64,000 bases of DNA from Pseudomonadales bacterium (GTDB taxonomy: Bacteria; Pseudomonadota; Gammaproteobacteria; Pseudomonadales; UBA3067): NCBI GenBank assembly GCA_040235475.1, contig JBECKY010000031.1:3293-67292 (forward strand), read 5' to 3'. Below the pieces are notes generated by a model. The model saw nothing but the letters and a program-made list of their open reading frames with translations, had not been told where the DNA came from and made no database searches. Of this stretch, positions 45,993 to 64,000 are shown in pieces (position 1 is the stretch's first letter; each line of letters starts with the position of its first letter). The position numbers were made by a program, and so were the translations under genes.

Positions 45993-47213
45993 TTAACTGA
46001 CTAAATCATTCATACTCACAATGGGCAGCATAATAGCCAACACCATAAGTAATACCATCACGCCCATAATAACCAGAATCAGTGGCTCAAACAGGCTTAC
46101 AATGGTACTCACCAGCGATTCAAGATCCCTTTCCTGGCTTAGCGCTACCCTATCGAGCATGGTTTCGAGTTCACCACTGGCTTCACCGCTGGCAATCATC
46201 TGAATCATCATTGGGGAGAAGTAACCGCAAGGTTCAAGCGCCCTGTTCAAGCTGCTACCTTCGCGCATTTTAGTGGTTACATCCCTAACTGCTTCTTTTA
46301 TACATAAATTCGCCATCACCTGGGCTGCAATTTTCAAAGCTTCAACCAAAGGTACACCGCTGGATGCTAATATGCTAAGAGTACTGGCAAAGCGTGAGGT
46401 ATCTCCACCAATAACAATTTTATTATACAAAGGAACTTTCATTACAAAGCGATGAAACCTGAAACGGTTTTTTTCCAATTTCAGTGAATATCGAAAAGCA
46501 AACACGCTCAGTATCGCAAGGATAAAAATATAAACCCCCCAGGCTTTGGTAAACTCACTGGCGGCAATCAACCACTGGGTTAGTAAAGGCAAGGTTCCTC
46601 CGGAGTTTTCAAACGCCATAACCAGCTTCGGCACAATAAAACCCAGCATCCCAGCGACAATTAATATGGCAAAAATCAGCAAAATAACCGGATACAACAG
46701 GGCTTGCTGGACTTTTTGCTGAGTTGCGTGTCGACGTTCAGTAAAGTCTGCCAATTGCTCCAACACTTTATCCAAATGCCCCGATTCCTCTCCAGCAGCG
46801 ACCGTTGCCCGGTACAACTCAGGAAAAGACCGGGGGTATTCCGCCAGTGCAATGGCAAAGCTATGCCCTTCCAGTACGCGACTGCGTATCGCCAGAAGCA
46901 TACTTTTAACTTTTTGTTTTTCAGTTTGTCGAGCCACTGCCCCAACGGCTTCTTCAACAGCAAGTCCAGCCTGTATGAGTGTGGCCAATTGACGCGTGAT
47001 CAGGGAAAGGTCTTTGGCGCTGATTTTAGCGCCACCGGAAAAGATGCGTATTGAGGAGATCGATTTTTCTTTTTGCTTAGTAAGCTCTACGGTTAAAGGC
47101 ACCCAATTTTTTTCACGCAGTTTCTGGCGAATCTGACGTGGGCTATCGCCTTCCAAAACACCTTTTTTTTCACGGCCTTTTTCATTCAGCGCGCTGTATT
47201 CAAATGCCGGCAT
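45993..47213 (-). CDS. gspF: Type II secretion inner-membrane platform protein F
   Basis: 406 aa starting MPAFEYSALNEKGREKKG, with duplicated GspF-type cytoplasmic domains and three transmembrane helices. Confidence 0.92.
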   Translation of the reverse strand: MPAFEYSALNEKGREKKGVLEGDSPRQIRQKLREKNWVPLTVELTKQKEKSISSIRIFSGGAKISAKDLSLITRQLATLIQAGLAVEEAVGAVARQTEKQKVKSMLLAIRSRVLEGHSFAIALAEYPRSFPELYRATVAAGEESGHLDKVLEQLADFTERRHATQQKVQQALLYPVILLIFAILIVAGMLGFIVPKLVMAFENSGGTLPLLTQWLIAASEFTKAWGVYIFILAILSVFAFRYSLKLEKNRFRFHRFVMKVPLYNKIVIGGDTSRFASTLSILASSGVPLVEALKIAAQVMANLCIKEAVRDVTTKMREGSSLNRALEPCGYFSPMMIQMIASGEASGELETMLDRVALSQERDLESLVSTIVSLFEPLILVIMGVMVLLMVLAIMLPIVSMNDLVS

Positions 47214-47215
47214 AA

Positions 47216-48793
47216 TCAGCCCTCCCTGGTCACTCGCAGCACTTCTTCAACAGTGGTAATACCGTTGAGAATATTACGTGCGCCATCAGTTCGGATACCG
47301 GGACCACTTTCGCGGGCATGTTTTTCTAATTCATGCTCAGCTGCACCATTATGAATCAGCTGCCGCATGGTTTCATCCATAACAATAAGTTCATAAATGC
47401 CGGTTCGACCCTGATACCCCAAATGAATACAGGCTTGGCAACCTTTTGCGTGATACAGTGTCGGCGGCTTCTGTTTATCAAAACCAAATAATTCACATTC
47501 TTTTTCATCCGCCTGATAAGGTTCCCGGCAAGATTGACATAACACCCGAACCAGGCGTTGCGCTAACACACCCAATAAACTTGAAGACAACAAAAAAGGC
47601 TCAATGCCCATATCATGAAGCCGGGTAACAGAACCAACGGCGGTATTGGTGTGCAAAGTGGATAATACCAAGTGCCCCGTTAAACTCGCTTGCACCGCAA
47701 TGGCAGCGGTTTCCAAATCACGAATTTCGCCGACCATAACCACATCAGGGTCTTGTCGAAGTATGGCCCTTAAGCCGCGGGCAAAAGTCATTTCAGCCTT
47801 AGCATTCACTTGTGTTTGGCCGATACCGTCCAGCTTGTATTCAATGGGATCTTCTACGGTAAGAATATTACGGCTTTTATCATTCAGCTGGGTCAGGGCA
47901 GCGTAGAGGGTGGTGGTTTTTCCTGAACCCGTTGGTCCGGTGACCAGAATAATACCGTGGGGTTTATAAATAATATCTTTCAAGCATCGATAATCACGAT
48001 CAGACATGCCAAGATGGCGCAAATCCAGTCGGCCCGCTTGTTTATCCAATAGCCTTAGAACAACTCGTTCGCCGTTGCTCGAAGGCATGGTTGAAACCCG
48101 CACATCCACTTCATGACCGGCTAATTTTAGCGATATGCGTCCATCTTGCGGCACTCTCTTTTCGGCAATGTCCAGTTTCGACATGACTTTTATTCGCGAA
48201 ATCAGCAAAGGCGCCAATTCTCGGCGCGGCTCGACCACTTCCCTTAGCACACCATCAATACGCATCCGTACCACTAAACGGCGTTCAAAGGTTTCGATAT
48301 GAATATCTGAGGCATTTTTTTTAACCGCTTCGGTTAATAAAGCGTTAATCAGACGAATAATCGGCGCATCATCTTCCTGCTCCATTAAATCTTCTGTTTC
48401 AGGTAAGGCTTCAGCCAAGCTGGCCAAATCCAACTCATCACCCATACCTTCAACCATTTGCATGGCTTCACTGGAATGGCTTTGATAGATTTCGGTTAGC
48501 CTGCGCTCAAATTCGCTGTTCTCGACGCGAACAAAATCAACCGGCTGACCCAAAAATCGCCGCACTTCGGCCATGATTTCGAGACTCACACCAGGTTTAA
48601 GCAATACAGGCACACCACCAGAGTAGTCTCTTAATGCAGCATGGTCTTGGTTAACATTGCCTTGCTTAGGGTAGGCCCAATCAATCAGTACGCCATGGCG
48701 CCGGGCAAAAGAATAAGACAAGCTTTTATGATTGGCATATACGGCTTTCTGTTCATCGGGATTTAGCGGGGCACTGTGCAGTAATTCTTCCAC
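47216..48793 (-). CDS. gspE: Type II secretion ATPase E
   Basis: 525 aa with Walker [11 protein letters not shown], Asp and His boxes, Walker B, and the GspE-specific tetracysteine motif CQSC..(x)..CQAC. GTG start. Confidence 0.93.
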
Positions 48794-49193: not shown

Positions 49194-50183
49194 ATGGCTG
49201 TAAATAGCATACTCGTCACTGGTGGAGCGGGATATATCGGTAGTCATGTTGTCAGACAGCTAGGCGAACGCGGTGAAAACCTAGTCATTCTCGATGATAT
49301 CTCAAGCGGTGTTCCAGAAGCCGTGCTCTACGGCGAGCTGATCGAAGGTAATACCGGCGATCAGGCCCTGGTAAGCGAGATTTTGAAAAAATACCAGGTT
49401 GAAAGCGTACTGCACTTTGCCGCCCACACCATTGTGCCAGAGTCAGTTGAGAATCCACTTAAATATTATCAAAACAATACCGCCAATACCCGCAACCTGC
49501 TCGAGTGTTGTCAAAACGCAGGAGTGAAGCACTTTATTTTTTCCTCCACCGCAGCTGTTTATGGGAATCTGGAAGGCGGTGTTGCCACTGAAGATACACC
49601 CACAAAACCTATCAACCCCTACGGAAGCTCAAAACTGATGTCTGAGTGGATGCTCAAAGACCTTTCCGCCGCCAGCAATTTACGCCATGTTACCCTGCGC
49701 TATTTTAATGTTGCTGGCTCTGAACCTGAAGGCAGAATTGGTCAAAATACACCCAATGCGACACTGCTCATAAAAGTTGCAGCAGAAGTGGCTGTTGGCA
49801 AACGCCCGGAAATTTTTGTTTATGGCACTGATTATGACACCCCTGACGGCACAGGGGTTCGTGATTATATTCACGTTGAAGACTTAGCCAGCGCTCACCT
49901 GAAAGCCTTGGACTATTTAAGACAAGGAGGCCAATCACGTACATTTAACTGCGGCTATGGTCATGGCTTTAGTGTGCGAGAAGTGCTTGACGCTGTTCAA
50001 CGCGTAAATGGCAAGCCAATAAATATTGTTGAAAAACCCAGGCGCGCCGGAGATCCACCATCTTTAGTTGCAAACTCCACCGCCATTCAAAATGAATTAC
50101 AGTGGCAGCCGCAATATGACAACCTGGATACCATTGTCAGCACGTCCATTAATTGGGAAAAAAAATTATTAGGAAAAAAATGA
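49194..50183 (+). CDS. galE: UDP-glucose 4-epimerase
   Basis: 329 aa with VTGGAGYIGSH and the catalytic PYGSSKLMSE (YxxxK), an extended-SDR layout typical of GalE. AAGGAG lies upstream of the ATG. Confidence 0.88.
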   Translation: MAVNSILVTGGAGYIGSHVVRQLGERGENLVILDDISSGVPEAVLYGELIEGNTGDQALVSEILKKYQVESVLHFAAHTIVPESVENPLKYYQNNTANTRNLLECCQNAGVKHFIFSSTAAVYGNLEGGVATEDTPTKPINPYGSSKLMSEWMLKDLSAASNLRHVTLRYFNVAGSEPEGRIGQNTPNATLLIKVAAEVAVGKRPEIFVYGTDYDTPDGTGVRDYIHVEDLASAHLKALDYLRQGGQSRTFNCGYGHGFSVREVLDAVQRVNGKPINIVEKPRRAGDPPSLVANSTAIQNELQWQPQYDNLDTIVSTSINWEKKLLGKK

Positions 50184-50307: not shown

Positions 50308-50949
50308 GTGATACAAAAATTACTGCCCGCTTCGGTTATTACTGTGGTTGCAACACCTGATATGTGGATCCAAGCTGCCTATCCTGATGAAATGTCCCTG
50401 GTTAAAAATGCCGTAACCCAGAGGCAACAAGAGTTTCAGGCGGGTCGAAACTGCGCAAAAGAAGCGCTTTCCATACTCGGAATCGAACACTTCCCCATTT
50501 TATCAGGCGTGAAAAGAGAACCCATCTGGCCTGAAGGCATTGTCGGCAGCATCACTCACTGCAAAGACTATTGCGCAGCAGCCCTGTGCAAAACCACGGT
50601 TGCAAAAAGCATTGGCATTGATGTTGAAAAAAAAACAACGCTTGATAAGAGCACTATAAATTTAATTTGCACTAAAACAGAGCGGGCATGGTTAAGCAAA
50701 CATGATCTAATGGATACCTTTTGGAGCAAAGTAATTTTTAGTGCCAAAGAATGTTTATACAAATGTTATTATCCCTTAACTCATCAATATTTAGATTTCC
50801 TGGAAGCAGAATTAAGCTTGGATCTTGATAAAAATATTTTTACCGCAAAACTACTAATAAATGCTCCGTCATCATTTAATATCAACGAACCGATTAAAGG
50901 CAGCTTTTTAATCGAAAAGGATTATATTTTTACCACTTTAATACTCTAA
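50308..50949 (+). CDS. 4'-phosphopantetheinyl transferase, EntD/Sfp type
   Basis: 213 aa with a GTG start. Motifs WPEGIVGSITHCKDYCAAAL, IGIDVE and FSAKECLYKCY match the EntD/Sfp-type PPTase signatures (GS.SH, G.D.E, FS.KE...K). Confidence 0.8.
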   Translation: MIQKLLPASVITVVATPDMWIQAAYPDEMSLVKNAVTQRQQEFQAGRNCAKEALSILGIEHFPILSGVKREPIWPEGIVGSITHCKDYCAAALCKTTVAKSIGIDVEKKTTLDKSTINLICTKTERAWLSKHDLMDTFWSKVIFSAKECLYKCYYPLTHQYLDFLEAELSLDLDKNIFTAKLLINAPSSFNINEPIKGSFLIEKDYIFTTLIL

Positions 50950-50973
50950 AAATAACAACGAGTGTAAAATCAA

Positions 50974-51936
50974 ATGACTAATTACGACGTATTTAATGGT
51001 GACGCCGATGGTATCTGTGCTCTGATTCAACTACGGCTTTCCAAACCTGTTGAATCCCAACTAATCACCGGAGTTAAAAGGGATATTCAACTGCTGGAAA
51101 AAATTTCGGCTGAAAAAAATGACCATATTACGGTTTTGGATATTTCGCTGGATAAAAACCGCAAGGCTTTATTAGATTGTTTAGATAAGGGCGCTCAGGT
51201 GAGCTGGTTCGATCATCATTTTGCGGGTGAAATCCCCACGGCAAGTAACCTGAAAACCTATATTGATACTGATGCCAATATTTGCACCAGCCTGCTGGTT
51301 GACCAATATTTAAAAGGTCAATACAAAGCCTGGGCGGTAACCGCTGCCTTTGGTGATAATTTAAAAGATAGTGCGATTCATGCCGCCAAAAATTTAAACC
51401 TTGCTAAAGACCAATTAGATTTATTGGAAAAGCTCGGTACCTATATTAACTACAATGGTTATGGTTCAGATATTAGTGAGCTGCATTTCTCGCCAACGCA
51501 GTTATATTCACTGCTTCTTCCTTATGCTAACCCATTGGATTTTATTATTAGCGACACTACGGTCTTTAAACAGCTTGAATCCGGCTATAAAGAAGACCTA
51601 AACCATGCGCATAATATTCAAGCTGAATTCAGCTCAGAAACAGCCGCGGCTTTTATTCTACCCAATGAACCTTGGGCGCGCCGTGTTAGCGGTGTCTTTA
51701 GCAACGACCTTTCTCAGAACAATCCAGATCGTGCCCACGCGGTATTAACCTTAAAAGCAAATAACAACTATTTAGTAAGTGTACGTGCCCCGTTAAGCAA
51801 TAAAACCGGTGCTGACGAATTGTGCAGACAATACCCGACAGGCGGTGGCCGAAAAGCTGCAGCAGGCATAAATGAACTTCCTGCTCATCAACTTGATGCA
51901 TTTATCAATTCATTTATGATTCACTTCTCCTGGTGA
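50974..51936 (+). CDS. DHH/DHHA1-family phosphoesterase (NrnA-like fold, substrate unknown)
   Basis: 320 aa. It has motif I FNGDADGICA, motif III WFDHHFAG and a C-terminal DHHA1-like GGGRKAAAG (Arg where the canonical GGGH has His). Starts 24 nt after the PPTase stop on the same strand. Confidence 0.65.
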   Translation: MTNYDVFNGDADGICALIQLRLSKPVESQLITGVKRDIQLLEKISAEKNDHITVLDISLDKNRKALLDCLDKGAQVSWFDHHFAGEIPTASNLKTYIDTDANICTSLLVDQYLKGQYKAWAVTAAFGDNLKDSAIHAAKNLNLAKDQLDLLEKLGTYINYNGYGSDISELHFSPTQLYSLLLPYANPLDFIISDTTVFKQLESGYKEDLNHAHNIQAEFSSETAAAFILPNEPWARRVSGVFSNDLSQNNPDRAHAVLTLKANNNYLVSVRAPLSNKTGADELCRQYPTGGGRKAAAGINELPAHQLDAFINSFMIHFSW

Positions 51937-52214
51937 TCAGCGTCACATATTTTTATATGCCTGTGATGCATGACAAGCGCAAAACTTGCTTGTGATCGAT
52001 TGCCCAGATCTCATTCTTTTCCCATGTAATTTATTCTGCCCGTGGTAAATTTGGGCGGCAGAACACACCCATTATCAACCAATCATCTAACCTATACTTC
52101 AAGGTAAATTTTAAATAACAAAGCACCACATGTTTAAACTTACCTTTCAGACTGGGAGTGCCAGCAAGGACTTTAATGCATGGATCAATCTGTTTAGCCA
52201 ATGGCGGAACTGCA

Positions 52215-54470
52215 ATGTTTGATTTCCATCACGATCTAATAAAGTGTAATATTTATTACTGGTGTTTAATAATCAGTCTGTCGCTATTAACAGCGTGCGG
52301 AGGCTCATCCAGTAGTAGCGATAACATTGATAATATCCTGTCTAAAGATTCAAGTCAGGACTCGTCAATATTGCTCTCAGGTCGTGTAGTTAAAGGTGTA
52401 ATTACCAATGCCAAGGTTTCAATATACTCAGTGAACGATGGCGTTATCAGCAATACCCAGATTGCCAGAACCATCACTAATGTAAACGGCACTTTTACTA
52501 TTGTTACTCCGCAAGAAGCGCTAACAAATATTTTATACCTTGAAGCCACGCCCTCTAATGACCCTCAGTTGCCAACCTTAATGACCTGCGATTCAATAAA
52601 TGGCTGCGGCACACGCAACAATGTTAAAATTGACTTTGGCGATACTTTTCGTGTTGATGATAACTTTAAACTTCGTAGTTTTGTTGAGTACAATAACACC
52701 CGTACAAAATTATCCACGCAGTTTACGCCACTGATGCACATGGCTGTGGCTTACGCAGAAGCACTTCCCGGCGGACTGACCAAAGCCAATATTATGGGCG
52801 CTCTAGAATATTTATCAGAAGTTTTTTTATTCACCCAAAGCATTAATCAGCTGGAAACTGTAGATTTAACGGTTTTATCTGAAATGAACGACGCCAATGA
52901 TGAAGAACTTGTAGCTGCAATTCTCGCCTCCACATTTATGAACATTGGACAAGCGCCAAACTACACTCCTGTTGAAACCATACTTAAAAACATTACCGCA
53001 CAACATGGTGTTTTGGCCAACAACGACACACAAAACCCTGACAGCCTTTCTCTGCTGCATATAGCGAACCTGGCTATAGCCAATATACCAAGCGATGTAG
53101 CCAACAGAACTAATATTAGCAATCAATTAAATCAAATAGCGTTAAACGCATCGGACACAGTTAGCAGTGTCGAACTTGACGTGGTCGCAGGGTCAAACGG
53201 AAAAGTTATTTCATCCTCCCACTCTTTTGAATGCCTGGCCTCGTGTCAATACAATATAACCAAAAGCGACACGGTTACATTAAATGCCATAGCCGACAGC
53301 GGTTTTGAATTCACTTCCTGGAATAATAGCTGTCCCGGATTACAAGACCAAAGCCATCCTATTTGCGAATTCACCTTGCTGGAATCAGCAACTGTACAAG
53401 CAACATTTTCACCCATCACAAACACTACACACAACCTTGTGCTTACCATTGTCGGCCAAGGCAGCGTTACACTGGATAATGAAAATCTTAGCTGCAACAA
53501 TAACTGCGCATTCATTCTGGATGACGCTGCATTAATTAAGCTCAGTGCTACAGCTGCATCAGGCAGCAGCTTACAGTCATGGACACTGGATCAACAGCCT
53601 GTGTGTGGAATTAATACAAGCTGCGACGTTATGATGTCTGGAGATCTCAATCTCAAAATCACTTTCGTTGAAAACACTACTCCATCTGTTGAGTATGTCA
53701 ACTTAACGATAAAGGCTGACGGAGAAGGTGTAGTAAAAGATTCAGCCCTTAACCTCGCATGTCAACAAACAAGCTGTTTATTTCAAATTAAAAAAGGCAC
53801 AACAATTAATTTTTCAGCAACGCCTTTAAATAGCAATACCCATAAGTTTTCAGGCTGGCAAGGCTTATGCTCTGGAGGCGGTAATTGTATACGCACAATG
53901 GACTCAGATGGCTTATTGACAGCTATTTTTAGCGCCCTTCCCCAGCAAACACTGACCGTAAACATTTCCGGCGGCGGAAGTGTAAACGATGCCGCATTAA
54001 ATTTCTCATGCAATCAGGCAAGCTGCAGCACTAATCTGGATTTTGCCACACAGGTGAATCTAAGCGCCACGGCAAATGCAGGCTACGCATTTGATCACTG
54101 GGAAAATGACTGTACTAATTTCACAAACGATTGCTCAGTAAATATGGATTCGAATCATACGGTCACAGCGGTTTTTAAGTCTACAACTGCGTCAACAACC
54201 GTTAGCTGGACAGCACCCACACAAAGAGAAAGCGGTAATCCATTACCTGTCTCAGAGATTAAAAAATACATTATCTATTATGGTACTAAAAGCGGCGTAT
54301 ACATAGACGCCATTGAAGTTGGCTTGCCTGATAACAGCAATACAATTCCAACAGAGCTAAGCATAGATGGATTAGATAAAGGCCTGGTTTATTATTTTGC
54401 AGGTATGACAGTAGATTCGAACAACTTATCAAGCAAGCTTTCTAATGAAGTGACCAGGCTTATTCAATAA
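52215..54470 (+). CDS. Large surface lipoprotein with four cysteine-paired repeats (InlB B-repeat-like) and a C-terminal FN3-like domain
   Basis: The start is set at the ATG at 52215 (MFDFHHDLIKCNIYYWCLIISLSLLTACGG, lipobox LTAC). The track ORF begins at 52158. Four repeats of about 85 aa each have the pattern G.G.V...(L.C)..C........L.A.A..G..F..W...C....C...M.....(T)A.F. The tail VSWTAPTQRESGNPL..I..Y.IYYG is FN3-like. Confidence 0.7.
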   Translation: MFDFHHDLIKCNIYYWCLIISLSLLTACGGSSSSSDNIDNILSKDSSQDSSILLSGRVVKGVITNAKVSIYSVNDGVISNTQIARTITNVNGTFTIVTPQEALTNILYLEATPSNDPQLPTLMTCDSINGCGTRNNVKIDFGDTFRVDDNFKLRSFVEYNNTRTKLSTQFTPLMHMAVAYAEALPGGLTKANIMGALEYLSEVFLFTQSINQLETVDLTVLSEMNDANDEELVAAILASTFMNIGQAPNYTPVETILKNITAQHGVLANNDTQNPDSLSLLHIANLAIANIPSDVANRTNISNQLNQIALNASDTVSSVELDVVAGSNGKVISSSHSFECLASCQYNITKSDTVTLNAIADSGFEFTSWNNSCPGLQDQSHPICEFTLLESATVQATFSPITNTTHNLVLTIVGQGSVTLDNENLSCNNNCAFILDDAALIKLSATAASGSSLQSWTLDQQPVCGINTSCDVMMSGDLNLKITFVENTTPSVEYVNLTIKADGEGVVKDSALNLACQQTSCLFQIKKGTTINFSATPLNSNTHKFSGWQGLCSGGGNCIRTMDSDGLLTAIFSALPQQTLTVNISGGGSVNDAALNFSCNQASCSTNLDFATQVNLSATANAGYAFDHWENDCTNFTNDCSVNMDSNHTVTAVFKSTTASTTVSWTAPTQRESGNPLPVSEIKKYIIYYGTKSGVYIDAIEVGLPDNSNTIPTELSIDGLDKGLVYYFAGMTVDSNNLSSKLSNEVTRLIQ

Positions 54471-54525: not shown

Positions 54526-55923
54526 TTAACGCGCACCTTTACCGAAAATCACAACTTCAACCGTTTGAATAATAATGATGAAATCCAGAAGCAAGTTACC
54601 GTTTTTCACATAGTACAAATCGTATTGAAATTTTTGCAAGGCATCATTGTCAGTAGCACCATAAGGGTAGCAAAGTTGTGCCCAGCCGGTAATACCTGGT
54701 TTAACCCGGTGGCGCTCATGATAATAGGGTATTTTCTCCGCCAACATTTCAACAAACTGTGGTCGCTCTGGCCTCGGACCAACAAAACTCATATCGCCTT
54801 TCAATACATTAAAAATTTGTGGCAATTCATCAATTCTAAATTTTCTAATTACCTGACCAACCTTAGTAACACGAGCATCATTTTTACCAGCCCATTGAGC
54901 AACGCCGTCCTTTTCAGCATTTTCAATCATGCTCCTGAATTTAAGCACTGTGAAAACAGCTCCATTGAGCCCCACGCGTTCCTGTTTATAAATGATCGCA
55001 GCCTTCGTCCCGTCTTCAATACGAATAGCTATGACTGTCAGCAACATAATAGGCCAAGTCAAAAGCAATAGAAACGTACCGGCAAAAAGATCAAAAAAAC
55101 GTCCCAAAAACTGCTTGGTAATATTTATTTCAAAACCAGGGCAAAAAATCAACCCGCTAGGGTGCACCAAATCAACTTCAATTTTTCCAACTTCCCGCTC
55201 AAAAAACTCAACCACATCGACGACATCAATGCCACTTAAACGGCAGTCCAGCAATTCGGCCATTGGAAAACTTTTCCTTCTATCATCAATGGCTACAACT
55301 ATTTCATCCACATCGTTCGCTTGAGCGAACTCAAGCAAAGGTAGGTCAAGCGTGACTAATTGTGTTTCGTCAACATGGCATTTTTCACCTTTCATACGGA
55401 TAAAACCAATGATTTTAAAGCCACGCTTATCAACTTTTCTGCGTAATTTTACTAAAATATTATTTGCCCGCTCAGCTGCACCTAAAACAAGCACTCTACG
55501 TTTTAGTAACTCTTCACCGACAACATGAACAAAAATATATCTAGACGCAATAACCAGGATCAAAGAAAAAATAGCCGCCAGAAACATAATGCCTCTACCG
55601 ACATAAAGAGAAGGAAAAACATAGGACACAATAACTGTCGCTATCCCACCAGCAGCTATTGCAAAAGCGGATCTAATAATAATATCGCTAAACACTTCTC
55701 TTGAACGGGAGTGATATAAACCCATAGCGCCCATAGCAGTTATTAACATAAACGAAAATAAAAACGGTCCTAAAGGGGAGTCGCCATGAATATATGTACC
55801 AGGCAATTTTGGCCGAGCTTGAAGCGCAGCATAAAAAGCCAGCACGAAAAAAATACCCTCGAGACCAGCTAAAAGCACATAAGGCTTGCGAAAATTCAGA
55901 CCGAAAATTCTGATTGTTGACAA
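54526..55923 (-). CDS. Polyprenyl-phosphate sugar-phosphate transferase (EPS priming enzyme, PEP-CTERM-locus type)
   Basis: C-terminal bacterial sugar transferase domain KFRSM, DELPQ, GDMSFVGPRP and PGITGWAQ, with N-terminal transmembrane helices. The start is set at the TTG at 55923 (MSTIRIFG..), preceded by GAGG 8 nt upstream. The track ORF starts at the TTG at 55950. Confidence 0.85.
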   Translation of the reverse strand: MSTIRIFGLNFRKPYVLLAGLEGIFFVLAFYAALQARPKLPGTYIHGDSPLGPFLFSFMLITAMGAMGLYHSRSREVFSDIIIRSAFAIAAGGIATVIVSYVFPSLYVGRGIMFLAAIFSLILVIASRYIFVHVVGEELLKRRVLVLGAAERANNILVKLRRKVDKRGFKIIGFIRMKGEKCHVDETQLVTLDLPLLEFAQANDVDEIVVAIDDRRKSFPMAELLDCRLSGIDVVDVVEFFEREVGKIEVDLVHPSGLIFCPGFEINITKQFLGRFFDLFAGTFLLLLTWPIMLLTVIAIRIEDGTKAAIIYKQERVGLNGAVFTVLKFRSMIENAEKDGVAQWAGKNDARVTKVGQVIRKFRIDELPQIFNVLKGDMSFVGPRPERPQFVEMLAEKIPYYHERHRVKPGITGWAQLCYPYGATDNDALQKFQYDLYYVKNGNLLLDFIIIIQTVEVVIFGKGAR

Positions 55924-55992
55924 CGTAAATACCTCTAAATTAAAAATCAAGTATTCTTAACATGCCGTAAAGCATGCCACGATAATCGACAA

Positions 55993-56889
55993 TTAAACCT
56001 CAGCAAAGGAGTAATAAGGAATATCTTGTTGATTACTCAATACTTTCCTAACAGTAGTAAATTTAAAAGAGCATAGCAGCTCTTCAAGCCTGCTTTCACA
56101 TTTACCTAAATTATTATAATGCCTGAATTTTGACAGCAAGCTGGCTTTAATTCTAGGTTGTTGCGTATCAATTTCCCAAGGATGCAAATAAAAAATAAAC
56201 GGCTTGTGCTCTTTTTTATTCACCCGGCTAAGATTAAAAAATGTAAACCAATAAGGGTACAGCCTAAAATAACCACCACCGGCCATGGGTAAAGTGACAG
56301 GCCCAATTTTTGCGGTAGTTAAGGGATACTCTATTAACTTTCTACCTGACTTTGTTTTAAAATAATAAATATTTTTAGGCGAACCGGGTAAACCGTAACG
56401 ATCATGTACAACCGGGAATATGCTCGAATCATATTCGAACCCCGCCTCAGCCAGAACTTCAAGTGCCCAAAGAGAATCCTGAGTTATAGAATAACTGGCA
56501 GCCCTATACCCTGTTACCGCCTTCCCGGAAATATCCTCAAGTAATGATTTTGCGCGAATTGTCTCTTCAGTGAATTCTTTTTTGCTCTGATTATAAATTA
56601 ATTTGTGACTGTATCCATGACAAGCAACTTCATGACCACAATCAGCAATCGCTGAAACCAAATTTGGAACCTTGTTAGCAACCCAGCCCAAAGTAAAAAA
56701 AGTAGCTTTAACGGAATGCTTATCAAATAATTCAAGAAGGCGATGGGTATTACGCTCAACTCTTAAGGGAAAGTTATCCCAATCACTACGGCTTACAGAG
56801 TTTTCAAATGCAGAAACCTGAAAGTAATCTTCAACATCAACTGTTAATGCATTTGCAATCGGGCTGCCGCCGTTATTGTCAATACTCAT
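55993..56889 (-). CDS. Polysaccharide deacetylase family protein (PEP-CTERM/EPS-locus subtype)
   Basis: 298 aa with N-terminal LTVDVEDYFQVSAFE and later CHGYSH, the pattern I associate with the deacetylase subfamily found in exosortase EPS loci. Confidence 0.78.
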   Translation of the reverse strand: MSIDNNGGSPIANALTVDVEDYFQVSAFENSVSRSDWDNFPLRVERNTHRLLELFDKHSVKATFFTLGWVANKVPNLVSAIADCGHEVACHGYSHKLIYNQSKKEFTEETIRAKSLLEDISGKAVTGYRAASYSITQDSLWALEVLAEAGFEYDSSIFPVVHDRYGLPGSPKNIYYFKTKSGRKLIEYPLTTAKIGPVTLPMAGGGYFRLYPYWFTFFNLSRVNKKEHKPFIFYLHPWEIDTQQPRIKASLLSKFRHYNNLGKCESRLEELLCSFKFTTVRKVLSNQQDIPYYSFAEV

Positions 56890-56898
56890 AAAGTTTAA

Positions 56899-58221
56899 TT
56901 ACAAAATATCCGTATATCTGAAAGAAAGTACTCCAGACAAGGCTTCAAACTCTGCGCTCGGAAAATCCGAGAACTGGTTTTCGTGAACTAAGTCTATATC
57001 AACTATTAAACGTTTACTTAAACGCCAGTGTAACTGCAGTGCAGTTAAGTAGTCTCTTGAAATTTCACCTTGCTCAAATAATTTTTCTATATAATGCTCT
57101 TTAAAAGTAAAGCGCATTCCAGGATTTAATTGCCTGGATATTGACAATCGCCCGGCAATTTCATCATTATTCGCCGAAGTTATTTGCCTAAAATGCTCTT
57201 GTTCGATTTTCGCAAACTGGATTTTTATATTATTAACGTGAACTTTTTGCTCATAATCAACGCTGGAGTTTTTAGTTTTACTGATCGCATTAATTGTGTC
57301 TAAAGCCAGAGCAGAGCCTATCGCCGTTTCCGAAGCCTGGAGATCCTGCACATTTGATGACAACAATTGATTTAATTGACTGATATTATCTTCATAACCG
57401 ACACTATATTTTGCCCGAATTCGGCTGCCTGCCCACGGCGTCCAGTTAATAGTAGCTTTAAGACTAAGGGTTTCGTTATCTGAATCAACACTATCAATGC
57501 TGATCCTTTCTTCGCCAATATTAAAATCAACATCTACCGAACGTAAGTTTTTGGCATAGCCTAAAAAAAACTCTTCGGTTCTATAACCCGGGGTAACAGT
57601 AGCGTCAGGTACTGTTTCATCATTCTCTATGTCTTCATAAACATGATTAACAGAGAGTTGGCCCGCTACCATTTTATGCTGCCAGGAAACCTTACCGGAT
57701 AAACGTTTGCTGTCACTCAGCTCTTCCTGCTCAATATATTTATAAGAAGCTGAAAGCAAAACGCTATCTACTGAGCTTAACTTTATCCTCCATTCAGGTT
57801 CAGTGTTGTAGCTGACTTGATCAGAAAGGTTGTCAGCATTGGCCGCTTGACGCGAATCCACCAACACTGTGTTTGCAGTAACATTGTTATTCCAGGCAAA
57901 GGTAGTAGGTAACACGCTGAAATTCATAAACAACACACCATTAGCAGATACTTCCTCAGAATTATCAAACAGTTCTTTTTCTCTACTAAAATAACTTAGC
58001 TTTGCATCTCCTCCAGCTTCTATTAACGAGCCCTTCTTTAGACCTGAAATCCCTGTATCAAGACTATACTCTTGACCTGATTCCGAATCAGCCCTTTTCA
58101 CAATATTATCACTCGTGGTTAACGAAGTACCCACAAAGTAATGCAATGCCTCAGCATAAACCGAGTTCATAGGAAATATTACCAGCAATAAAAAAAAAAG
58201 CTGACGTTTAAAAAAATTCAT
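56899..58221 (-). CDS. Outer-membrane beta-barrel protein of the EPS locus
   Basis: 440 aa with a signal peptide (LLLVIFPMNSVYA), then long alternating-polarity strands ending ..GVLSFRYTDIL. Positioned between the kinase-like gene and the deacetylase, as in PEP-CTERM EPS clusters. Confidence 0.6.
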   Translation of the reverse strand: MNFFKRQLFFLLLVIFPMNSVYAEALHYFVGTSLTTSDNIVKRADSESGQEYSLDTGISGLKKGSLIEAGGDAKLSYFSREKELFDNSEEVSANGVLFMNFSVLPTTFAWNNNVTANTVLVDSRQAANADNLSDQVSYNTEPEWRIKLSSVDSVLLSASYKYIEQEELSDSKRLSGKVSWQHKMVAGQLSVNHVYEDIENDETVPDATVTPGYRTEEFFLGYAKNLRSVDVDFNIGEERISIDSVDSDNETLSLKATINWTPWAGSRIRAKYSVGYEDNISQLNQLLSSNVQDLQASETAIGSALALDTINAISKTKNSSVDYEQKVHVNNIKIQFAKIEQEHFRQITSANNDEIAGRLSISRQLNPGMRFTFKEHYIEKLFEQGEISRDYLTALQLHWRLSKRLIVDIDLVHENQFSDFPSAEFEALSGVLSFRYTDIL

Positions 58222-58257
58222 TGTAATTACAGGGTAGTTATAGGGAATTTAAGAATA

Positions 58258-59076
58258 TTAACGCTGGCGCAAAATAGTCTCATTATTAACAACCAAACCT
58301 GCCAGTTTTTCTTTAGGTATAGCTTTAAGGCTTTCAGCAACCTGAGAACCGGTTACTTTGCCATAAGGTACTACTACAACAGCCATATCACAAAGCTGAA
58401 CCAGCTGCCTCACATCAGCAGTCTCAGTAAGAGGCGGCGCATCAACAATAACAAACCTATCTGAATAGCGATCTCTGACCAACTTCAAAAATATTTTCAT
58501 TCGTTGCGAATTAAAATATTCCGAAGCATACTCAGTTCTATGCCCGGCAGGCACCACTCGTAAACGCTTAACCCCAGACGCATATATAATTTGCTCTATA
58601 TCCACCTGGTTATTTTCAAGGAAACCCGTTAAACCATGCTCAACTCCTTCGAGGCCAAAAATATCATCCAGGTCCGGTTTACCTAAATTCGCATCAATCA
58701 ATAAGGCAGTTTTACTTGAATCAATAGAAAAAGCCATTGCCAAATTGCTGGCAACATAAGTCGCGCCACCCTCACCACAGATAGATGTAACCATAACAAT
58801 AAAGTTTTTATCCGACGACTTTTCCAGCAATTGCGTACGTAACTCACGAAACCTGTTAACAACTCTAGACTGCTTCATTTCAGGATAAATTAGCTTACGC
58901 TCATCGAGATCTGAATAGGAGAATTCTACAACCTCCTCCATCCGCTGGATACGCGGATCATACAATGTATAGTCTCTCATTTGGTCTACCGAGCTATCAA
59001 GAGAAACAATTTTTTGCTGCTTAATACCATTCTGATCCACAGAGCTGGCATTGCCATCTGTTTTGCCAGTCGCCAT
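58258..59076 (-). CDS. BY-kinase-like P-loop protein (EpsG-like) with a degenerate Walker A
   Basis: 272 aa. Walker A position reads VTSICGEGGATYVASNLA (canonical is GEGKST), Walker A' LLIDANLGKP, Walker B FVIVDAPP. No tyrosine-rich C-terminal tail. Its ATG directly abuts the TAA of the upstream Wzz-like gene. Confidence 0.7.
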   Translation of the reverse strand: MATGKTDGNASSVDQNGIKQQKIVSLDSSVDQMRDYTLYDPRIQRMEEVVEFSYSDLDERKLIYPEMKQSRVVNRFRELRTQLLEKSSDKNFIVMVTSICGEGGATYVASNLAMAFSIDSSKTALLIDANLGKPDLDDIFGLEGVEHGLTGFLENNQVDIEQIIYASGVKRLRVVPAGHRTEYASEYFNSQRMKIFLKLVRDRYSDRFVIVDAPPLTETADVRQLVQLCDMAVVVVPYGKVTGSQVAESLKAIPKEKLAGLVVNNETILRQR

Positions 59077-60603
59077 TTAAATCACCTCCATGATTTTCAA
59101 AGCAGCAAAGCCAAAATAAACAATTAAAAACAAACAAAAAACACCAGCAATGACAGAAAAATCTTTTTTCATTGTTAACGCTTCCGCAGGATTTGTTACT
59201 TTTGGTATGCTGGTTAAGACCGGAGCATCAACAAACTCACTTAATGAATACCTATAACGAATACGTTGATCAAACATGATCATGGCATAAATCAAGCCTA
59301 AAGGAATTATCATTCCCGCCAACGGCGCGGCTAACCAAAAATGCATAACGCTTGCACCAGAGGGCTTTTGCGGAATAGTTGCGGGACTGATAATCTTGAA
59401 GTTTGCACCCTTTTGATCAATCTCAATATTCATCGACACGCGAGCATTCTCTCTTCTCATCAACAAATCCTGATAAATGTCTTTGTTAACGTTATAATCT
59501 CGAGTCAGCTCAGACAGTTCGGCTTCATTTTCATGTATTCGTTCTGAGCGAGACTTTTGCTCAGCCAATAAATCTTCCAGCCTTCGAATGCGAACTTTTT
59601 GTGCCTCGATACTGGATTCAACCTTGGAAATTTCACTTCTTATTTGCTGCAATAAAATATTGTCAGTGTTGCTGATATTGCTACGTCCAGAGGCTTGGGG
59701 AGACTCCACACCACTTTCCACAGCGGCCATCTGTTTTTCAAGTTCACCGATCTGAACCTTAATGCTGACAATATCAGGATAGGAATCATGATAACTTAAA
59801 CGTAGATTATCCAGAGTTTTCTCTAATTCTATAACCCTTTTCTTAAGGTTGTTTTTCAATTCCTGGACTCTACTTTCAGTGCTTTCACCATCCAATTGTT
59901 GTTTTAGCGATTTCCTTTTAAACTGATTTTCAGAGAGCTCTATCCGAGCAGCTTCCAACTGTTGCTCCAAATTAGAAATCCGGGATCCTACACCGCCAAT
60001 AGTACCTTCAAATTTTTCAGTTTTAAAAACCCTAAGCCTTTCTTCAGATGCTTTTAATTTCGAATGGTAATTATTAACCTGATCACTTATAAAATCAAAA
60101 GCCTCACGGCTTTTTTGCCGACTCTCTTCTTGGTGTAACAAAATAAATGCTTCAACCAGGTTTTGAGTGACCTCGAAAGCTCGACGAGGGTCTGTATCTT
60201 CATAGGAAAAAAGCAACGAATTTTTTCCGAGTCCAGATACCCTGGTATTATGCTTTACCTGCTTAATAAACTTTTCCACATTGCTTGAATCAATTACACC
60301 TTCAACGTTCCAGTCTGTTTTGTTAACAACATCAAGCAGCACTTCCCTGACTAAAATCTTTTCTTTAGCATCTCGAACCCAGTCTTTAGAACTCGCCAGT
60401 ACCGCACGTTCTTTCATTAACGGCGTCATTACCGAGTCTGTCTCTAAGAGTAAAGTAGCTGAAGAAATATATTTTTTGGGCTTTAATGCACCTGCAGTCA
60501 AAACGAGAACAACAGTTAAAAGAAACACAAAGGAAAGCTGCTTTTTATATCGCCATGCTTCTCTTACGGTGATAACAAACTGCTCATAAGGAGGTATATT
60601 CAA
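59077..60603 (-). CDS. Polysaccharide chain-length determinant (Wzz/PCP family, EpsF-like)
   Basis: 508 aa with an N-terminal transmembrane helix, a long coiled-coil periplasmic region, FKIISPATIPQKPSG, and a C-terminal transmembrane helix. Confidence 0.8.
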   Translation of the reverse strand: MNIPPYEQFVITVREAWRYKKQLSFVFLLTVVLVLTAGALKPKKYISSATLLLETDSVMTPLMKERAVLASSKDWVRDAKEKILVREVLLDVVNKTDWNVEGVIDSSNVEKFIKQVKHNTRVSGLGKNSLLFSYEDTDPRRAFEVTQNLVEAFILLHQEESRQKSREAFDFISDQVNNYHSKLKASEERLRVFKTEKFEGTIGGVGSRISNLEQQLEAARIELSENQFKRKSLKQQLDGESTESRVQELKNNLKKRVIELEKTLDNLRLSYHDSYPDIVSIKVQIGELEKQMAAVESGVESPQASGRSNISNTDNILLQQIRSEISKVESSIEAQKVRIRRLEDLLAEQKSRSERIHENEAELSELTRDYNVNKDIYQDLLMRRENARVSMNIEIDQKGANFKIISPATIPQKPSGASVMHFWLAAPLAGMIIPLGLIYAMIMFDQRIRYRYSLSEFVDAPVLTSIPKVTNPAEALTMKKDFSVIAGVFCLFLIVYFGFAALKIMEVI

Positions 60604-60669
60604 GTTAAGTTCTCAGTATTGCATTCCCGTTTCACTAACTATTGATTTAACAATATAAACATGTCGCTT

Positions 60670-61326
60670 TTATAACAGCCTTTCAGGGATTGTAATAATA
60701 TCGCCTGGCTGCAAACTAAAATTTGTATCGAGCTTGCCTTTATTTAAAATATCTTTTACTTTTAGTTTGTATATCTTTGTTTCCTGTCCTTGCCTACGAA
60801 ATAGTTTTGATTTGTTTGGTGAGGCAAATTCCGTTAAACCACCAGCCACAAGCACGACATCAAGAACCGTCATGCCCGGCCTGAAAGGCAAGGACATGGG
60901 ATTACGCACTGCCCCGGTAACTCTCACCCTGGATAGATATTCAGTACTATTTACCTTGGCAACAATAACTGTAACACGTGGATCCCTGATAAATTCAGCC
61001 AATTTTACCGTAATCCCTGCGGCAAGTGCTTCAGGTGTTAAGCCACCGGCACTGATATCATCAACCAGAGGGGAGGATATTTTACCGTCTGGACGCACCG
61101 GTACTGTTACGGATAAATCAGCGTTCTTCCAAACAGATATGTTAAGCACATCACCAGGTCCAATGATGTAATTTTTTTCACTGACAGCCTCTTTAATGTC
61201 ATTCACTTTGTTATCGGACAATACCCGTTGCCCATGACTACCTGCCAGGGCAAAACCAGAAGCCACTGAAAGCAGCATAGCCACAATAAAAATCAAAGAG
61301 TTATAAACTTTTTTAGACAAATTCAC
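60670..61326 (-). CDS. Polysaccharide export protein (Wza-like, EpsE-like)
   Basis: 218 aa with a signal peptide, the Poly_export motif YIIGPGDVLNISVW and an SLBB-like C-terminal half (LQPGDIITIP). Confidence 0.85.
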   Translation of the reverse strand: MNLSKKVYNSLIFIVAMLLSVASGFALAGSHGQRVLSDNKVNDIKEAVSEKNYIIGPGDVLNISVWKNADLSVTVPVRPDGKISSPLVDDISAGGLTPEALAAGITVKLAEFIRDPRVTVIVAKVNSTEYLSRVRVTGAVRNPMSLPFRPGMTVLDVVLVAGGLTEFASPNKSKLFRRQGQETKIYKLKVKDILNKGKLDTNFSLQPGDIITIPERLL

Positions 61327-61714: not shown

Positions 61715-64000
61715 ATGCGCTTTTGCCTAACAGCCAACCACAACGGCTATGCTATTTGTCTTAAAAAATCTATCAAGAACATTAACTTACTGCTGCTTTT
61801 AACAGGTGCTCTACTTGGACTGGCGGCTTGTGAGAAAAAAATAGCCGTAGATCCTGACTATGAAAACCTTAAAAGAGCGGATTCTTTCATTACCCAGGGT
61901 AACCTCTCAGCGGCCCGTATAGAGCTGTTAAATGCTCTACAAATAAACGCCAAGAACCCGAAAGCCTTTCTGCTCCTTGCAGACATCTACCAAATGCTCG
62001 GCCTATATAGACAAGCGGCCGAGGAATTACGTAGAGCACAATCCCTGAATCAGGATAGCTCCACCGCCATGCAATTAAAAATTCATCGCATGCTTGTCAT
62101 GGCTGGGGATAGCTCTGCCAAGGAAGATTTAAGCAAACTGCAAATGACTAAAGAAGAACAAACTCTGGAAAAGCAGGTTTTGTTGGGGCGTATTTATTTT
62201 ATTGACAACGAACTTGAAAAGGCAACACACCTGTTTAAGCAGGTTATCAATACCGAAAACCCATTCAGGGCTGAGGCTTATTTTGGCTTGGCGAACATCG
62301 CGCAAAAGACAGGCTCTATAGGTCAAGCCATTGCCCTGATGGATAAATCTTTAACTATTGACCCCAACAATACTGAAGCCCTCCTTGCCAGGGGACAACT
62401 CTATTTGCATACCGGAGAAAATGCGAAGGCAGAAGACTTTTACACCAAAGCAATGATGGGACTAAAGCAGCTGGATGTAATGACAGTGCAAAAGTACATT
62501 GCCTTGAGCGGTCTGGTTGAAGCGCTGAACAGGCAAAGCAAAACTGAACAGGCCATCCAATATTCTGAAATCTTGGCAAAATCGCGTCCAGGGAAACTGA
62601 AATCAAACTATGAAAACGCTTTAACAGCTTTGGCGTCAAAGGATATTGAAAAAGCCAGGGCCAGCCTTGAAAACATCCTGGAAATTGTGCCTCACCACCC
62701 ACAATCAAACTATATAGCTGGGATGATGGAAATCAAGGAAGGCGATTTGGAAAATGCGGAAAAACATTTATCCCGGGCGCTGGCCGGCGAGCCAGTTTCT
62801 GATCAAATCAGAACAGCATTGATCATTACCCGTTTAAAGCTAAAGCAATATGCCAACGCAGAAAAACTTATTACTGAGGCGCTCCATACCAGTCCTGACA
62901 GTCCGGTTTATTTATCATTAAGAGGCGCTTATTTCGCTGCCACTGGCGAGTTCCAAAAAGCAGAGAACTCATTTTTAACCGCCTTACAAAATGACAGCAG
63001 GTTTCTACCCGCTATAAGTGAACTGGCAAACCTTTATGCAAGCAACAACAAGCTTGAAGAGGCCGAAGAATACATTGATCGAGGTATAAAAATAGCCCCC
63101 GAAAATATTGAGCTGTTAATGACAAAGGTCAAGTACGCCTCCAAAAATAATACACTTACGCAGGTGAAAACACAGTTACTGAATTTACATCAATCACAAG
63201 CAAATTTAATTGCTCCACCGCTGGTTTTAGCGGCGGTTTATTTAAATGAAAAAAATCTCGACTTGGCAACCCGATACCTAGACAAAGCAACTGCCATTAA
63301 TTCAAAGCATCCCCTGCTTGCTAATCTTAAAAGCAATATTTCGATTACTAAAGCGATGAACTTTATCGCCGACAACAAGCCTGAAGAAGCCCTCCTTAGC
63401 CTTGACCAGGCCTTGCTTGATCAGCCAAAAAACCTGCGTGCACAAATTTTAAAAGCAGACCTGTTAACTAAGCAGGGCGATAGCAAAGCGGCTCTCGATA
63501 TTGGTAGAAATCTGCAGTCAAACCCAAAAACAAAATTAATCGGCTATGAACTGACAGGAAATATTTTAGCCCAGCAGGCCCAGTTCGAACAGGCAGTTGA
63601 AGCCTATACTCATGTCTGGCAATCAGAAAAAAATCCCGGCCTGGCTTTAAAAATATACCGCATAAAAAAAGAATACACTGATCAAGCAAAAGCATCCGAG
63701 CACTTGGAAAACTGGCTGCAAGAAGACCCTAAGAATTTCTACGCCATCACCAGCCTGGCCACGACCAGCAGTGAAAGCAAAGACTTTCATAAGGCAGCCA
63801 TGCTTTATGAAAAAGCCTTGGAAATCAGCAAAGACAATCCCATTTTGTTGAATAACCTGGCTTATGCATACGATGAGTTACAAGATTCGAAAGCCCTGCC
63901 AACAGCTGAGCAAGCCTATCGCCTGGCCCCCGAAAACGCAGCCATAGCTGATACCTATGGCTGGATATTAGTGAGGAACGAACTATTTGAAAAAGCTTTG
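61715..64000 (+). CDS. TPR-repeat lipoprotein of the PEP-CTERM system (PrsT-like); 3' end beyond the right edge
   Basis: Absent from the track because it is truncated. My translation from the ATG at 61715 is open for 762 codons to base 64000: MRFCLTANHNGYAICLKKSIKNINLLLLLTGALLGLAACEKK.. (lipobox LAAC), followed by many TPR-like units (e.g. AYFGLANIAQKTGSIGQAIALMDKSLTIDPNN). Divergent from the EPS export operon. Confidence 0.75.
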   Translation, partial: MRFCLTANHNGYAICLKKSIKNINLLLLLTGALLGLAACEKKIAVDPDYENLKRADSFITQGNLSAARIELLNALQINAKNPKAFLLLADIYQMLGLYRQAAEELRRAQSLNQDSSTAMQLKIHRMLVMAGDSSAKEDLSKLQMTKEEQTLEKQVLLGRIYFIDNELEKATHLFKQVINTENPFRAEAYFGLANIAQKTGSIGQAIALMDKSLTIDPNNTEALLARGQLYLHTGENAKAEDFYTKAMMGLKQLDVMTVQKYIALSGLVEALNRQSKTEQAIQYSEILAKSRPGKLKSNYENALTALASKDIEKARASLENILEIVPHHPQSNYIAGMMEIKEGDLENAEKHLSRALAGEPVSDQIRTALIITRLKLKQYANAEKLITEALHTSPDSPVYLSLRGAYFAATGEFQKAENSFLTALQNDSRFLPAISELANLYASNNKLEEAEEYIDRGIKIAPENIELLMTKVKYASKNNTLTQVKTQLLNLHQSQANLIAPPLVLAAVYLNEKNLDLATRYLDKATAINSKHPLLANLKSNISITKAMNFIADNKPEEALLSLDQALLDQPKNLRAQILKADLLTKQGDSKAALDIGRNLQSNPKTKLIGYELTGNILAQQAQFEQAVEAYTHVWQSEKNPGLALKIYRIKKEYTDQAKASEHLENWLQEDPKNFYAITSLATTSSESKDFHKAAMLYEKALEISKDNPILLNNLAYAYDELQDSKALPTAEQAYRLAPENAAIADTYGWILVRNELFEKAL

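Follow-up and report, generated by a model that had tools for sequence, protein, structure and literature searches.

A bacterial DHH/DHHA1 phosphoesterase family predicted to hydrolyse pAp, and its lineage-specific position next to a phosphopantetheinyl transferase gene

A stretch of 64,000 nt from the genome of an uncultured marine gammaproteobacterium (Pseudomonadales bacterium, assembly GCA_040235475.1, contig JBECKY010000031.1, positions 3,293 to 67,292 of the forward strand), which we call the window, carries two genes that lie 24 nt apart on the same strand. The first encodes a 4′-phosphopantetheinyl transferase (PPTase) and the second a 320-aa protein of the DHH/DHHA1 phosphoesterase superfamily (Table 1). 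Together with galE they make up a probable operon, galE-PPTase-DHH, that borders an XrtA/PEP-CTERM exopolysaccharide (EPS) locus. An earlier sequence-only reading of this DNA had proposed that the pair couples carrier-protein activation to the clearance of 3′,5′-ADP (pAp), the nucleotide product that PPTases release from coenzyme A (CoA); both open reading frames (ORFs), their coordinates, the 24-nt gap and all of the motifs it quoted were recovered as described. Of that proposal, the hydrolysis of pAp by the DHH protein gained independent support, while a dedicated and recurrent pairing of the two genes did not hold. With a little more confidence than doubt, we regard the 320-aa protein as a two-metal DHH pAp 3′-phosphatase and a general CysQ-like scavenger that in this lineage occupies a position 3′ of galE and a conventional PPTase gene, by an EPS locus.

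Judged by its domains and motifs, the PPTase is best classed as a generic Sfp/EntD-type enzyme and not as an orthologue of any named PPTase, in keeping with the EntD/Sfp type first assigned to it. It shares with the Sfp/EntD/PptT group the usual size of a two-domain pseudo-dimer, about 210-240 aa, both Pfam domains (4PPT_N, E = 8.6e-27, 93.5 bits against a cutoff of 27; ACPS, E = 8.5e-14, 52 bits against a cutoff of 25) and, in its translation, the three signature motifs GSITH, IGIDVE and FSAKECLYK. Across a 22-sequence alignment S81, H84, D105, E107, K147, E148 and K152 are invariant, with D105, E107, K147 and E148 forming the catalytic columns. The protein, to which database entry P0271 is identical, differs from the named members in scoring well under their equivalog cutoffs, the nearest NCBIfam models (PptT, Npt and EntD) all being far under cutoff (PptT, 146 against 365), and in that its carrier-protein substrate is encoded outside the window. 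As the sequence-only reading had also stated, no carrier protein was found: PP-binding, nonribosomal peptide synthetase, polyketide synthase and polyunsaturated fatty acid synthase domains were absent from the window ORFs scanned, a few small pseudopilin ORFs of the type II secretion system (T2SS) having been left out. The enzyme would move phosphopantetheine from CoA to such an outside carrier protein, plausibly an EPS-associated one, and release pAp. It is known that pAp derives from CoA in the PPTase reaction (PMC3316155) and that the pAp moiety remains bound in the active site of PptT, and literature searches on product inhibition of PPTases by pAp gave nothing usable.

The translation of the 320-aa protein contains the motifs FNGDADG, FDHHF and TGGGRKAAAG. 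Its assignment to the DHH/DHHA1 superfamily, also part of the sequence-only reading, is confirmed by its modelled fold, since the sequence databases alone are insufficient for it: both Pfam domains score under their gathering cutoffs (DHH, PF01368, 23.7 against 28.1 bits; DHHA1, PF02272, 18.1 against 25.9 bits) and NCBIfam gives no match. A single-sequence phmmer search of the PDB returned catalase matches only, which we discarded as spurious. An AlphaFold2 model built from the family alignment shows the full DHH-linker-DHHA1 fold (pLDDT 97.6, pTM 0.93), and Foldseek matched it to 66 PDB entries at E ≤ 1e-3; among the matches listed, 50 of 50 are DHH-family proteins. The top match is 8A8K, the pAp phosphatase MtPAPP of Methanothermococcus thermolithotrophicus (E = 4.6e-15, 13% identity), with template modelling (TM) scores of 0.70 and 0.71, and it is the sole match with a TM score of about 0.70 under both normalisations. 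The archaeal DHH proteins 5YH1 and 7YIK reach 0.68 by query length and just 0.52 by target length, while RecJ-Cdc45, archaeal RecJ, NrnA, CnpB, GdpP and PggH range from 0.36 to 0.63 by query length with large root-mean-square deviations.

MtPAPP is a Mn2+-stimulated, PAP-specific DHH enzyme whose gene is located with those of ATP sulfurylase and adenosine 5′-phosphosulfate (APS) kinase (PMC10322725). We rebuilt its sequence from the supplement of that paper, and the result matched database protein P0391 at 100%. When profiles were aligned with hhalign, the bacterial family profile matched MtPAPP alone at E = 3.9e-5, and over residues 1-170 it aligned to a 30-sequence profile of archaeal pAp phosphatases (95.8% probability, E = 6.9e-9), all metal ligands falling in register. 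In the reciprocal direction sequence detection fails, a search with MtPAPP giving 169 matches of which all the named ones are archaeal. The two groups are alike in size (about 310-320 aa), in their DHH-linker-DHHA1 architecture, in the set and order of metal ligands, in a single motif-VI Arg, in a basic residue where GGGH has His, and in a gene association with ATP sulfurylase and APS kinase that is seen at part of the bacterial family's loci and is absent from the window. They differ in their low identity of 13%, in the Lys of the archaeal enzymes where the 320-aa protein has Arg, in the archaeal His where it has N8, and in the bacterial family's own NYNGYG motif and far larger size. From these comparisons the bacterial proteins, which we refer to as the GGGR family, are best placed as a separate deep branch of the DHH superfamily and not as members of the archaeal pAp phosphatase family, and they would be its bacterial counterpart (MtPAPP and PyapApase, the latter from Pyrococcus yayanosii).

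Individual residues are consistent with this placement. DHH motifs I-IV (DxD, D, DHH and D, the two-metal site) are present in the 320-aa protein and align to the MtPAPP ligands. In PyapApase the metal ligands are D10, D12, D59, D77, H78, H79 and D126 (PMC8268124), and their counterparts here are D10, D12, D56, D80, H81, H82 and D128. The substrate residues of PyapApase are R259, G285, G286 and K287; the substitutions R259A, G285D, G286D and K287A each abolish activity in the assay, with kcat of K287A falling about 100-fold (PMC8268124). In place of the canonical GGGH of DHHA1, the 320-aa protein has a GGGR variant. At motif VI, BsNrnA has R262, R264 and R266 and PyapApase has R259 (PMC8268124), while the 320-aa protein has the single R271 (VSVRAP). 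At motif VII the glycines are G282 in BsNrnA and G285 and G286 in PyapApase, and the position of the BsNrnA His, H284, is taken by K287 in PyapApase (PMC8268124); the 320-aa protein has G290-G292 followed by R293. MtPAPP likewise has Lys in motif VII (AGGK). The His-to-Arg change, which the sequence-only reading had taken as a hint of an altered phosphate-binding pocket, thus parallels the His-to-Lys change of characterised archaeal enzymes, in which the Lys is catalytically important. In the combination of a basic residue for His with one motif-VI Arg, the 320-aa protein appears to resemble the pAp-specialised enzymes and not NrnA; if this is true, a basic residue at the position of the GGGH His would be a hallmark of DHH enzymes specialised for pAp.

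The same residues are kept across a large family. At 90% identity it comprises at least 8000 clusters; an exhaustive search gave 1090 at 50% identity, of which 283 reach E ≤ 1e-30, and members from other orders retain about 60% identity. Over 82 sequences, down to 34% identity, G9, D12, G13, D80, H82, W120, G127, Y160, G164, R271, G290, G292 and G298 are invariant, and N8, D10, D56, H81, D128, G291 and R293 are kept in at least 90%. There is no curated model for the family, and databases name its members "DHH family phosphoesterase", "hypothetical" or even "acetyltransferase"; the UniRef name "Acetyltransferase" for the Litorivivens protein looks like a misannotation. One relative (P0171, 862 aa) joins an APH-like phosphotransferase region and an AAA_33 P-loop kinase to a C-terminal DHH protein of the family (residues 538-850), a fusion that might hint at a substrate class. 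We discarded it as evidence for APS kinase, since the AAA_33 kinase is not an APS kinase.

The genes that accompany the family supply a further line of evidence. Using one genome per species, we surveyed the best 80 of at least 589 loci, with DHH proteins 53-62% identical to the 320-aa protein, from Porticoccaceae, Halieaceae, Methylococcales, Thiohalophilus, Endozoicomonas, Hahella, Zetaproteobacteria and Myxococcota. Neighbours were counted in a six-frame scan of ±6 kb, free of gene calls, at these 80 loci (841 kb) and at 80 PPTase-anchored background loci (378 kb). APS kinase was found at 31/80 DHH-anchored loci, ATP sulfurylase at 12/80, an SLC13 permease at 8/80 and a SulP permease at 7/80 (15/80 for the two sulfate-type permeases together), with at least one of the four sulfate genes at 43/80; each of these counts was 0/80 in the background. 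Clustering of the ±3 neighbours of the DHH gene likewise gave APS kinase as the dominant partner. The arrangement itself varies. The APS kinase gene lies directly 5′ of the DHH gene in Methylobacter marinus and Methyloprofundus, directly 3′ of it in Methylovulum and M. psychrophilus, and in divergent orientation in Thioalkalispiraceae; in Porticoccaceae and Hahella the ATP sulfurylase gene stands between the two, and in Endozoicomonas a gene for a 634-aa CysN/C-like fusion protein lies 1 nt upstream of the DHH gene. Such rearranged orders span Methylococcales, Porticoccaceae, Hahella, Endozoicomonas, Thioalkalispiraceae and Arenicellales, and when genes stay adjacent through such reshuffling between orders, a functional link is usually indicated. 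In this case the link is to the metabolism of 3′-phosphoadenosine 5′-phosphosulfate (PAPS), of which pAp is a universal by-product. The backbone rpsA-ihfB-lapA-lapB-pyrF-comEA-like-DHH-SLC13 permease is seen in Litorivivens lipolytica (L001/L002) and at several Cellvibrionales-like loci.

Taken together, the fold match to MtPAPP, the profile homology of the DHH region, the association with APS kinase and ATP sulfurylase, and the likeness of the His-to-Arg to the His-to-Lys change support pAp hydrolysis, so that the 320-aa protein is very probably pAp-hydrolysing, with its exact substrate, metal and physiological role read from sequence and model. In the mechanism that we propose, the N-terminal domain would hold a two-metal (Mn2+) site formed by N8, D10, D12, D56, D80-H81-H82 and D128, the C-terminal domain would grip the nucleotide through R271 of motif VI and G290-G292/R293 of motif VII, and the enzyme would strip the 3′-phosphate from pAp to yield AMP and inorganic phosphate. 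Because its usual partner across bacteria appears to be the PAPS pathway (APS kinase, ATP sulfurylase and sulfate permeases), its role would be that of a general CysQ-like pAp scavenger, which would also clear PPTase-derived pAp without being a dedicated partner of the PPTase. CysQ itself, of the FIG/inositol-monophosphatase superfamily, shares the predicted reaction (pAp to AMP and inorganic phosphate) and the niche beside sulfate-activation genes; it differs in having an unrelated fold and a three-Mg2+ mechanism, and is a functional analogue only.

We give little credence to the idea that the protein is instead a nanoRNase or linear-dinucleotide phosphodiesterase of the NrnA, CnpB or PggH kind, or another nucleotide phosphoesterase that does not act on pAp, with its neighbours incidental. 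NrnA and CnpB (Rv2837c) belong to the same DHH/DHHA1 superfamily, and the best sequence-level PDB matches of the 320-aa protein are Rv2837c/NrnA (E = 1.3e-3, over the DHH and GGGx-AAG motifs) and RecJ; Foldseek also matches NrnA, GdpP, PggH, TM1595 and DhhP at E of about 1e-10, and a relative is listed in one database source as a "single-stranded DNA-specific DHH superfamily exonuclease". On full length, however, the fold similarity to NrnA/CnpB is lower (TM 0.41-0.50) and the nearest fold is that of a PAP-specific enzyme, while the GGGH His and the R-x-R-x-R of NrnA are absent from the 320-aa protein. Such an activity also offers no rationale for why genes of APS kinase, ATP sulfurylase and sulfate permeases should accompany the family so strongly and in rearranged orders; NrnA genes are not known for an APS kinase association, and Gammaproteobacteria normally have Orn for nanoRNA. 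For NrnA/CnpB, pAp phosphatase activity and complementation of cysQ are documented.

Several points weigh against the pAp scavenger as we have drawn it. It rests on a prediction for a whole bacterial family, and DHH/DHHA1 enzymes are promiscuous, acting on nanoRNA, pApA, pGpG, c-di-NMP and pAp. A plain profile search of the PDB reaches NrnA/CnpB and does not reach 8A8K at E ≤ 10. For the DHHA1 halves, the hhalign comparison with the archaeal pAp phosphatases is not significant (E = 0.14) and we claim no sequence homology there, so the motif VI and VII equivalences given above rest on fold and motif position. Adjacency to APS kinase would fit a PAPS or APS 3′-phosphatase equally well. The survey covered the best 80 loci only, in which related species are not independent samples, and within the window no APS kinase, ATP sulfurylase, sulfate permease or sulfotransferase was detected.

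A lone adjacency says nothing by itself about chance, so the significance of the DHH gene standing beside a PPTase gene was assessed through conservation, from both sides. The close DHH relatives (70-87% identical, all metagenomic) retain a block of gspF-gspE, galE-PPTase-DHH-B-repeat protein and EPS genes, with PPTases 61-87% identical to that of the window, and the PPTase-DHH gap is 24-119 nt among relatives. Across the 80 species-level loci of the DHH survey, no PPTase (0/80) was found within ±6 kb by tblastn, phmmer --max or a 22-sequence PPTase profile run on six-frame ORFs, a profile that recovered 80/80 in the positive control. The reverse survey took 80 PPTase-anchored metagenomic loci at 33-43% identity, with at least 1 kb downstream in 38 and at least 1 kb upstream in 49, and found the DHH gene at 1/80 (L100). 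The PPTase of L100 is 66% identical to P0283, whose contig repeats the block as gspL...gspE and galE-PPTase-DHH, with a 4-nt overlap of galE and PPTase and a different downstream gene. By BLAST, the DHH protein of L100 is no closer to the window clade than to other relatives, all of them being 55-59% identical, a result compatible with a single origin of the pair or with several. Among more distant PPTase relatives, L098 (46% identical) has galE-PPTase-phosphoglucose isomerase and no DHH gene in the DHH position, L096 (45%) has EPS genes adjoining the PPTase gene and no DHH gene, and the contig of L097 (47%) stops after the PPTase gene. The galE-PPTase and EPS association thus reaches wider than the PPTase-DHH association. 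On the 2.19-Mb metagenomic contig of L096, a group II intron reverse transcriptase (RVT_1 and GIIM; 10718-12031, minus strand) lies about 4 kb from the PPTase relative.

Every occurrence of the pair is a T2SS / galE-PPTase-DHH block in two related uncultured clades, and from this distribution the pair is most simply seen as one inherited, lineage-specific arrangement with at most opportunistic co-expression. The genome-neighbourhood survey that the sequence-only reading had called for shows an adjacency that is not recurrent, the pair being unconserved outside one lineage, an outcome which that reading had listed as refuting its proposal. The idea that selection holds the two genes together, and that the DHH enzyme is made alongside the PPTase for the specific purpose of removing inhibitory 3′,5′-ADP, is in our estimate improbable. 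Its appeal lies in the same-strand genes 24 nt apart with no intervening terminator, in a pair kept in two subclades despite divergence of the PPTase to 40% identity and a different downstream gene, in pAp being a PPTase by-product whose moiety stays in the PptT active site, and in the independent prediction that the DHH protein hydrolyses pAp; against these stand the counts of 0/80 and 1/80, the single ancestral block throughout, which gives no evidence of independent juxtaposition, the phosphoglucose isomerase gene in the DHH position of L098 and the lack of a DHH gene in L096, and the PAPS pathway as the dominant partner of the family. A PPTase moreover turns over once per carrier-protein molecule, so that on flux grounds and by general biochemistry it would be a trivial, very minor source of pAp next to PAPS use. 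Co-transcription of the two genes is plausible because they are 24 nt apart with no terminator between them. In the spacer, neither a terminator-like site nor a promoter-like site on the plus strand was seen; a promoter and terminator scan of 48.7-52.4 kb gave counts at or below the shuffled expectation and is uninformative on operon structure. The two proteins of the pair diverge at different rates: relatives with a 70% identical DHH protein have PPTases 61-64% identical, and those with a 55-56% identical DHH protein have PPTases 40% identical (L008-L015, L100, L179). By these identities the DHH protein is under much stronger constraint than the adjacent PPTase.

The EPS surroundings invite another account, in which the link is to polysaccharide synthesis and not to the PPTase: the EPS would be sulfated from PAPS, the DHH enzyme would clear the pAp left by the EPS sulfotransferases, and galE, PPTase and DHH would each serve an accessory role in EPS production. 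In its favour, the block adjoins the XrtA/PEP-CTERM EPS locus, the DHH gene of other lineages is found beside WbpM-like Polysacc_synt_2 genes (11 loci) and Glycos_transf_4 genes (7 loci), and the PPTase relative of L096 also adjoins EPS genes. Yet neither a sulfotransferase nor an APS kinase is detected in the window, beyond which the remainder of the EPS locus lies, and the adjacency to polysaccharide genes in Halieaceae-like genomes may be backbone synteny (rpsA-ihfB-lapAB-pyrF-...-comEA-DHH); we hold this account to be more doubtful still than a dedicated pairing. As improbable as the dedicated pairing, in our view, is a broader proposal in which, in this marine gammaproteobacterial lineage, galE-PPTase-DHH is a selected module of the XrtA EPS system that keeps local pAp low, sparing from product inhibition both a PPTase that acts on an EPS carrier protein and any PAPS-dependent EPS sulfotransferases, and in which the GGGR DHH family takes the place of CysQ as chief pAp phosphatase in Methylococcales, Cellvibrionales-like Pseudomonadales, Zetaproteobacteria and some Myxococcota. 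If it were true, this would be the first case of a PPTase and a pAp phosphatase coupled at the level of an operon.

The general scavenger that we prefer has its interest elsewhere. Sulfation, the reduction of PAPS and the activation of carrier proteins all generate pAp, which is toxic and which bacteria are assumed to remove through CysQ or NrnA; the data point to a third, widespread and unnamed pAp phosphatase family, apparently related to the recently discovered archaeal enzymes. Were this borne out, the annotation of thousands of genes would be corrected and a gap would be filled in sulfur-metabolism reconstructions of methanotrophs and marine Gammaproteobacteria. The adjacency to the PPTase is itself of little weight, being a lineage-specific arrangement and not a new system; the useful side result is that a very large, unnamed family of bacterial DHH proteins gains an annotation that can be tested. 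In the literature searched we found no description of the GGGR bacterial DHH subfamily or of a PPTase-pAp phosphatase gene pair.

Table 1. Features of the galE-PPTase-DHH block and its surroundings, with positions in the window.
Feature	Position	Strand	Evidence and remarks
T2SS gspF and gspE, divergently oriented, upstream edge of conserved block	45993..48793	-	ORFs; same T2SSF/T2SSE in relatives
galE (UDP-glucose 4-epimerase)	49194..50183	+	TIGR01179 GalE 4.2e-136, above cutoff; opens conserved galE-PPTase-DHH block
Sfp/EntD-type 4′-phosphopantetheinyl transferase, 213 aa, GTG start	50308..50949	+	Pfam 4PPT_N and ACPS
PPTase-DHH intergenic spacer, 24 nt	50950..50973	+	Sequence read directly
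320-aa DHH-linker-DHHA1 phosphoesterase, ATG start, predicted Mn2+-dependent pAp 3′-phosphatase	50974..51936	+	AlphaFold2 model, Foldseek, hhalign, residue conservation
770-aa protein, divergent InlB B-repeat domains	52158..54470	+	Pfam Flg_new_2 4.7e-27
XrtA/PEP-CTERM exopolysaccharide core genes	54526..61326	-	TIGR03013, TIGR03006, TIGR03007 and TIGR03027 above cutoff; TIGR03018 below
PrsT, XrtA/PEP-CTERM tetratricopeptide-repeat lipoprotein, continues past window end	61715..64000	+	TIGR02917, 366.8 bits (cutoff 312.2)

The window as a whole is a housekeeping chromosomal region with a Pseudomonadales/Cellvibrionales-like gene order: topA, purF-cvpA-dedD-folC, trpFBA, truA-fimV-asd-leuBDC, the T2SS operon, galE-PPTase-DHH, the 770-aa B-repeat protein, the XrtA/PEP-CTERM EPS core and PrsT. 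No Rfam family matched anywhere along it. On the upstream side, galE is immediately 5′ of the PPTase gene in all relatives examined, L008 and L179 having a 4-nt overlap at the PPTase start, and the T2SSF and T2SSE genes also lie beside galE in L008, L010, L097 and L179. The gene directly 3′ of the DHH gene encodes the B-repeat protein, which has several Flg_new_2 domains and a lipoprotein-like N-terminus; its counterpart is downstream in the closest clade (L008, L010-L013; 754-841 aa in L008, L010 and L013) and not in the second clade (L179).

The EPS genes that the sequence-only reading had placed next to the pair are present as an XrtA/PEP-CTERM core, which comprises a priming glycosyltransferase, a deacetylase, a 440-aa ORF, a tyrosine autokinase-like gene, a chain-length determinant and an export protein. 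The 440-aa ORF (56899-58221, minus strand) has zero Pfam or NCBIfam matches, and the autokinase-like gene (58258-59076) falls under the TIGR03018 cutoff (196 against 231 bits). The last 2.7 kb of the window (61.3-64 kb), apparently free of ORFs, is the open-ended frame of PrsT, divergent from the EPS export gene. Elsewhere in the window, a stand-alone fatty-acyl-CoA-ligase-like gene (13813-15510) scores under all NCBIfam cutoffs, and alpha/beta-hydrolase genes occur as a tandem pair at the window start (915-2999, minus strand) and as a third, solitary gene (38446-39423, minus strand) that adjoins genes for a short-chain dehydrogenase/reductase and a DUF481 outer-membrane protein.

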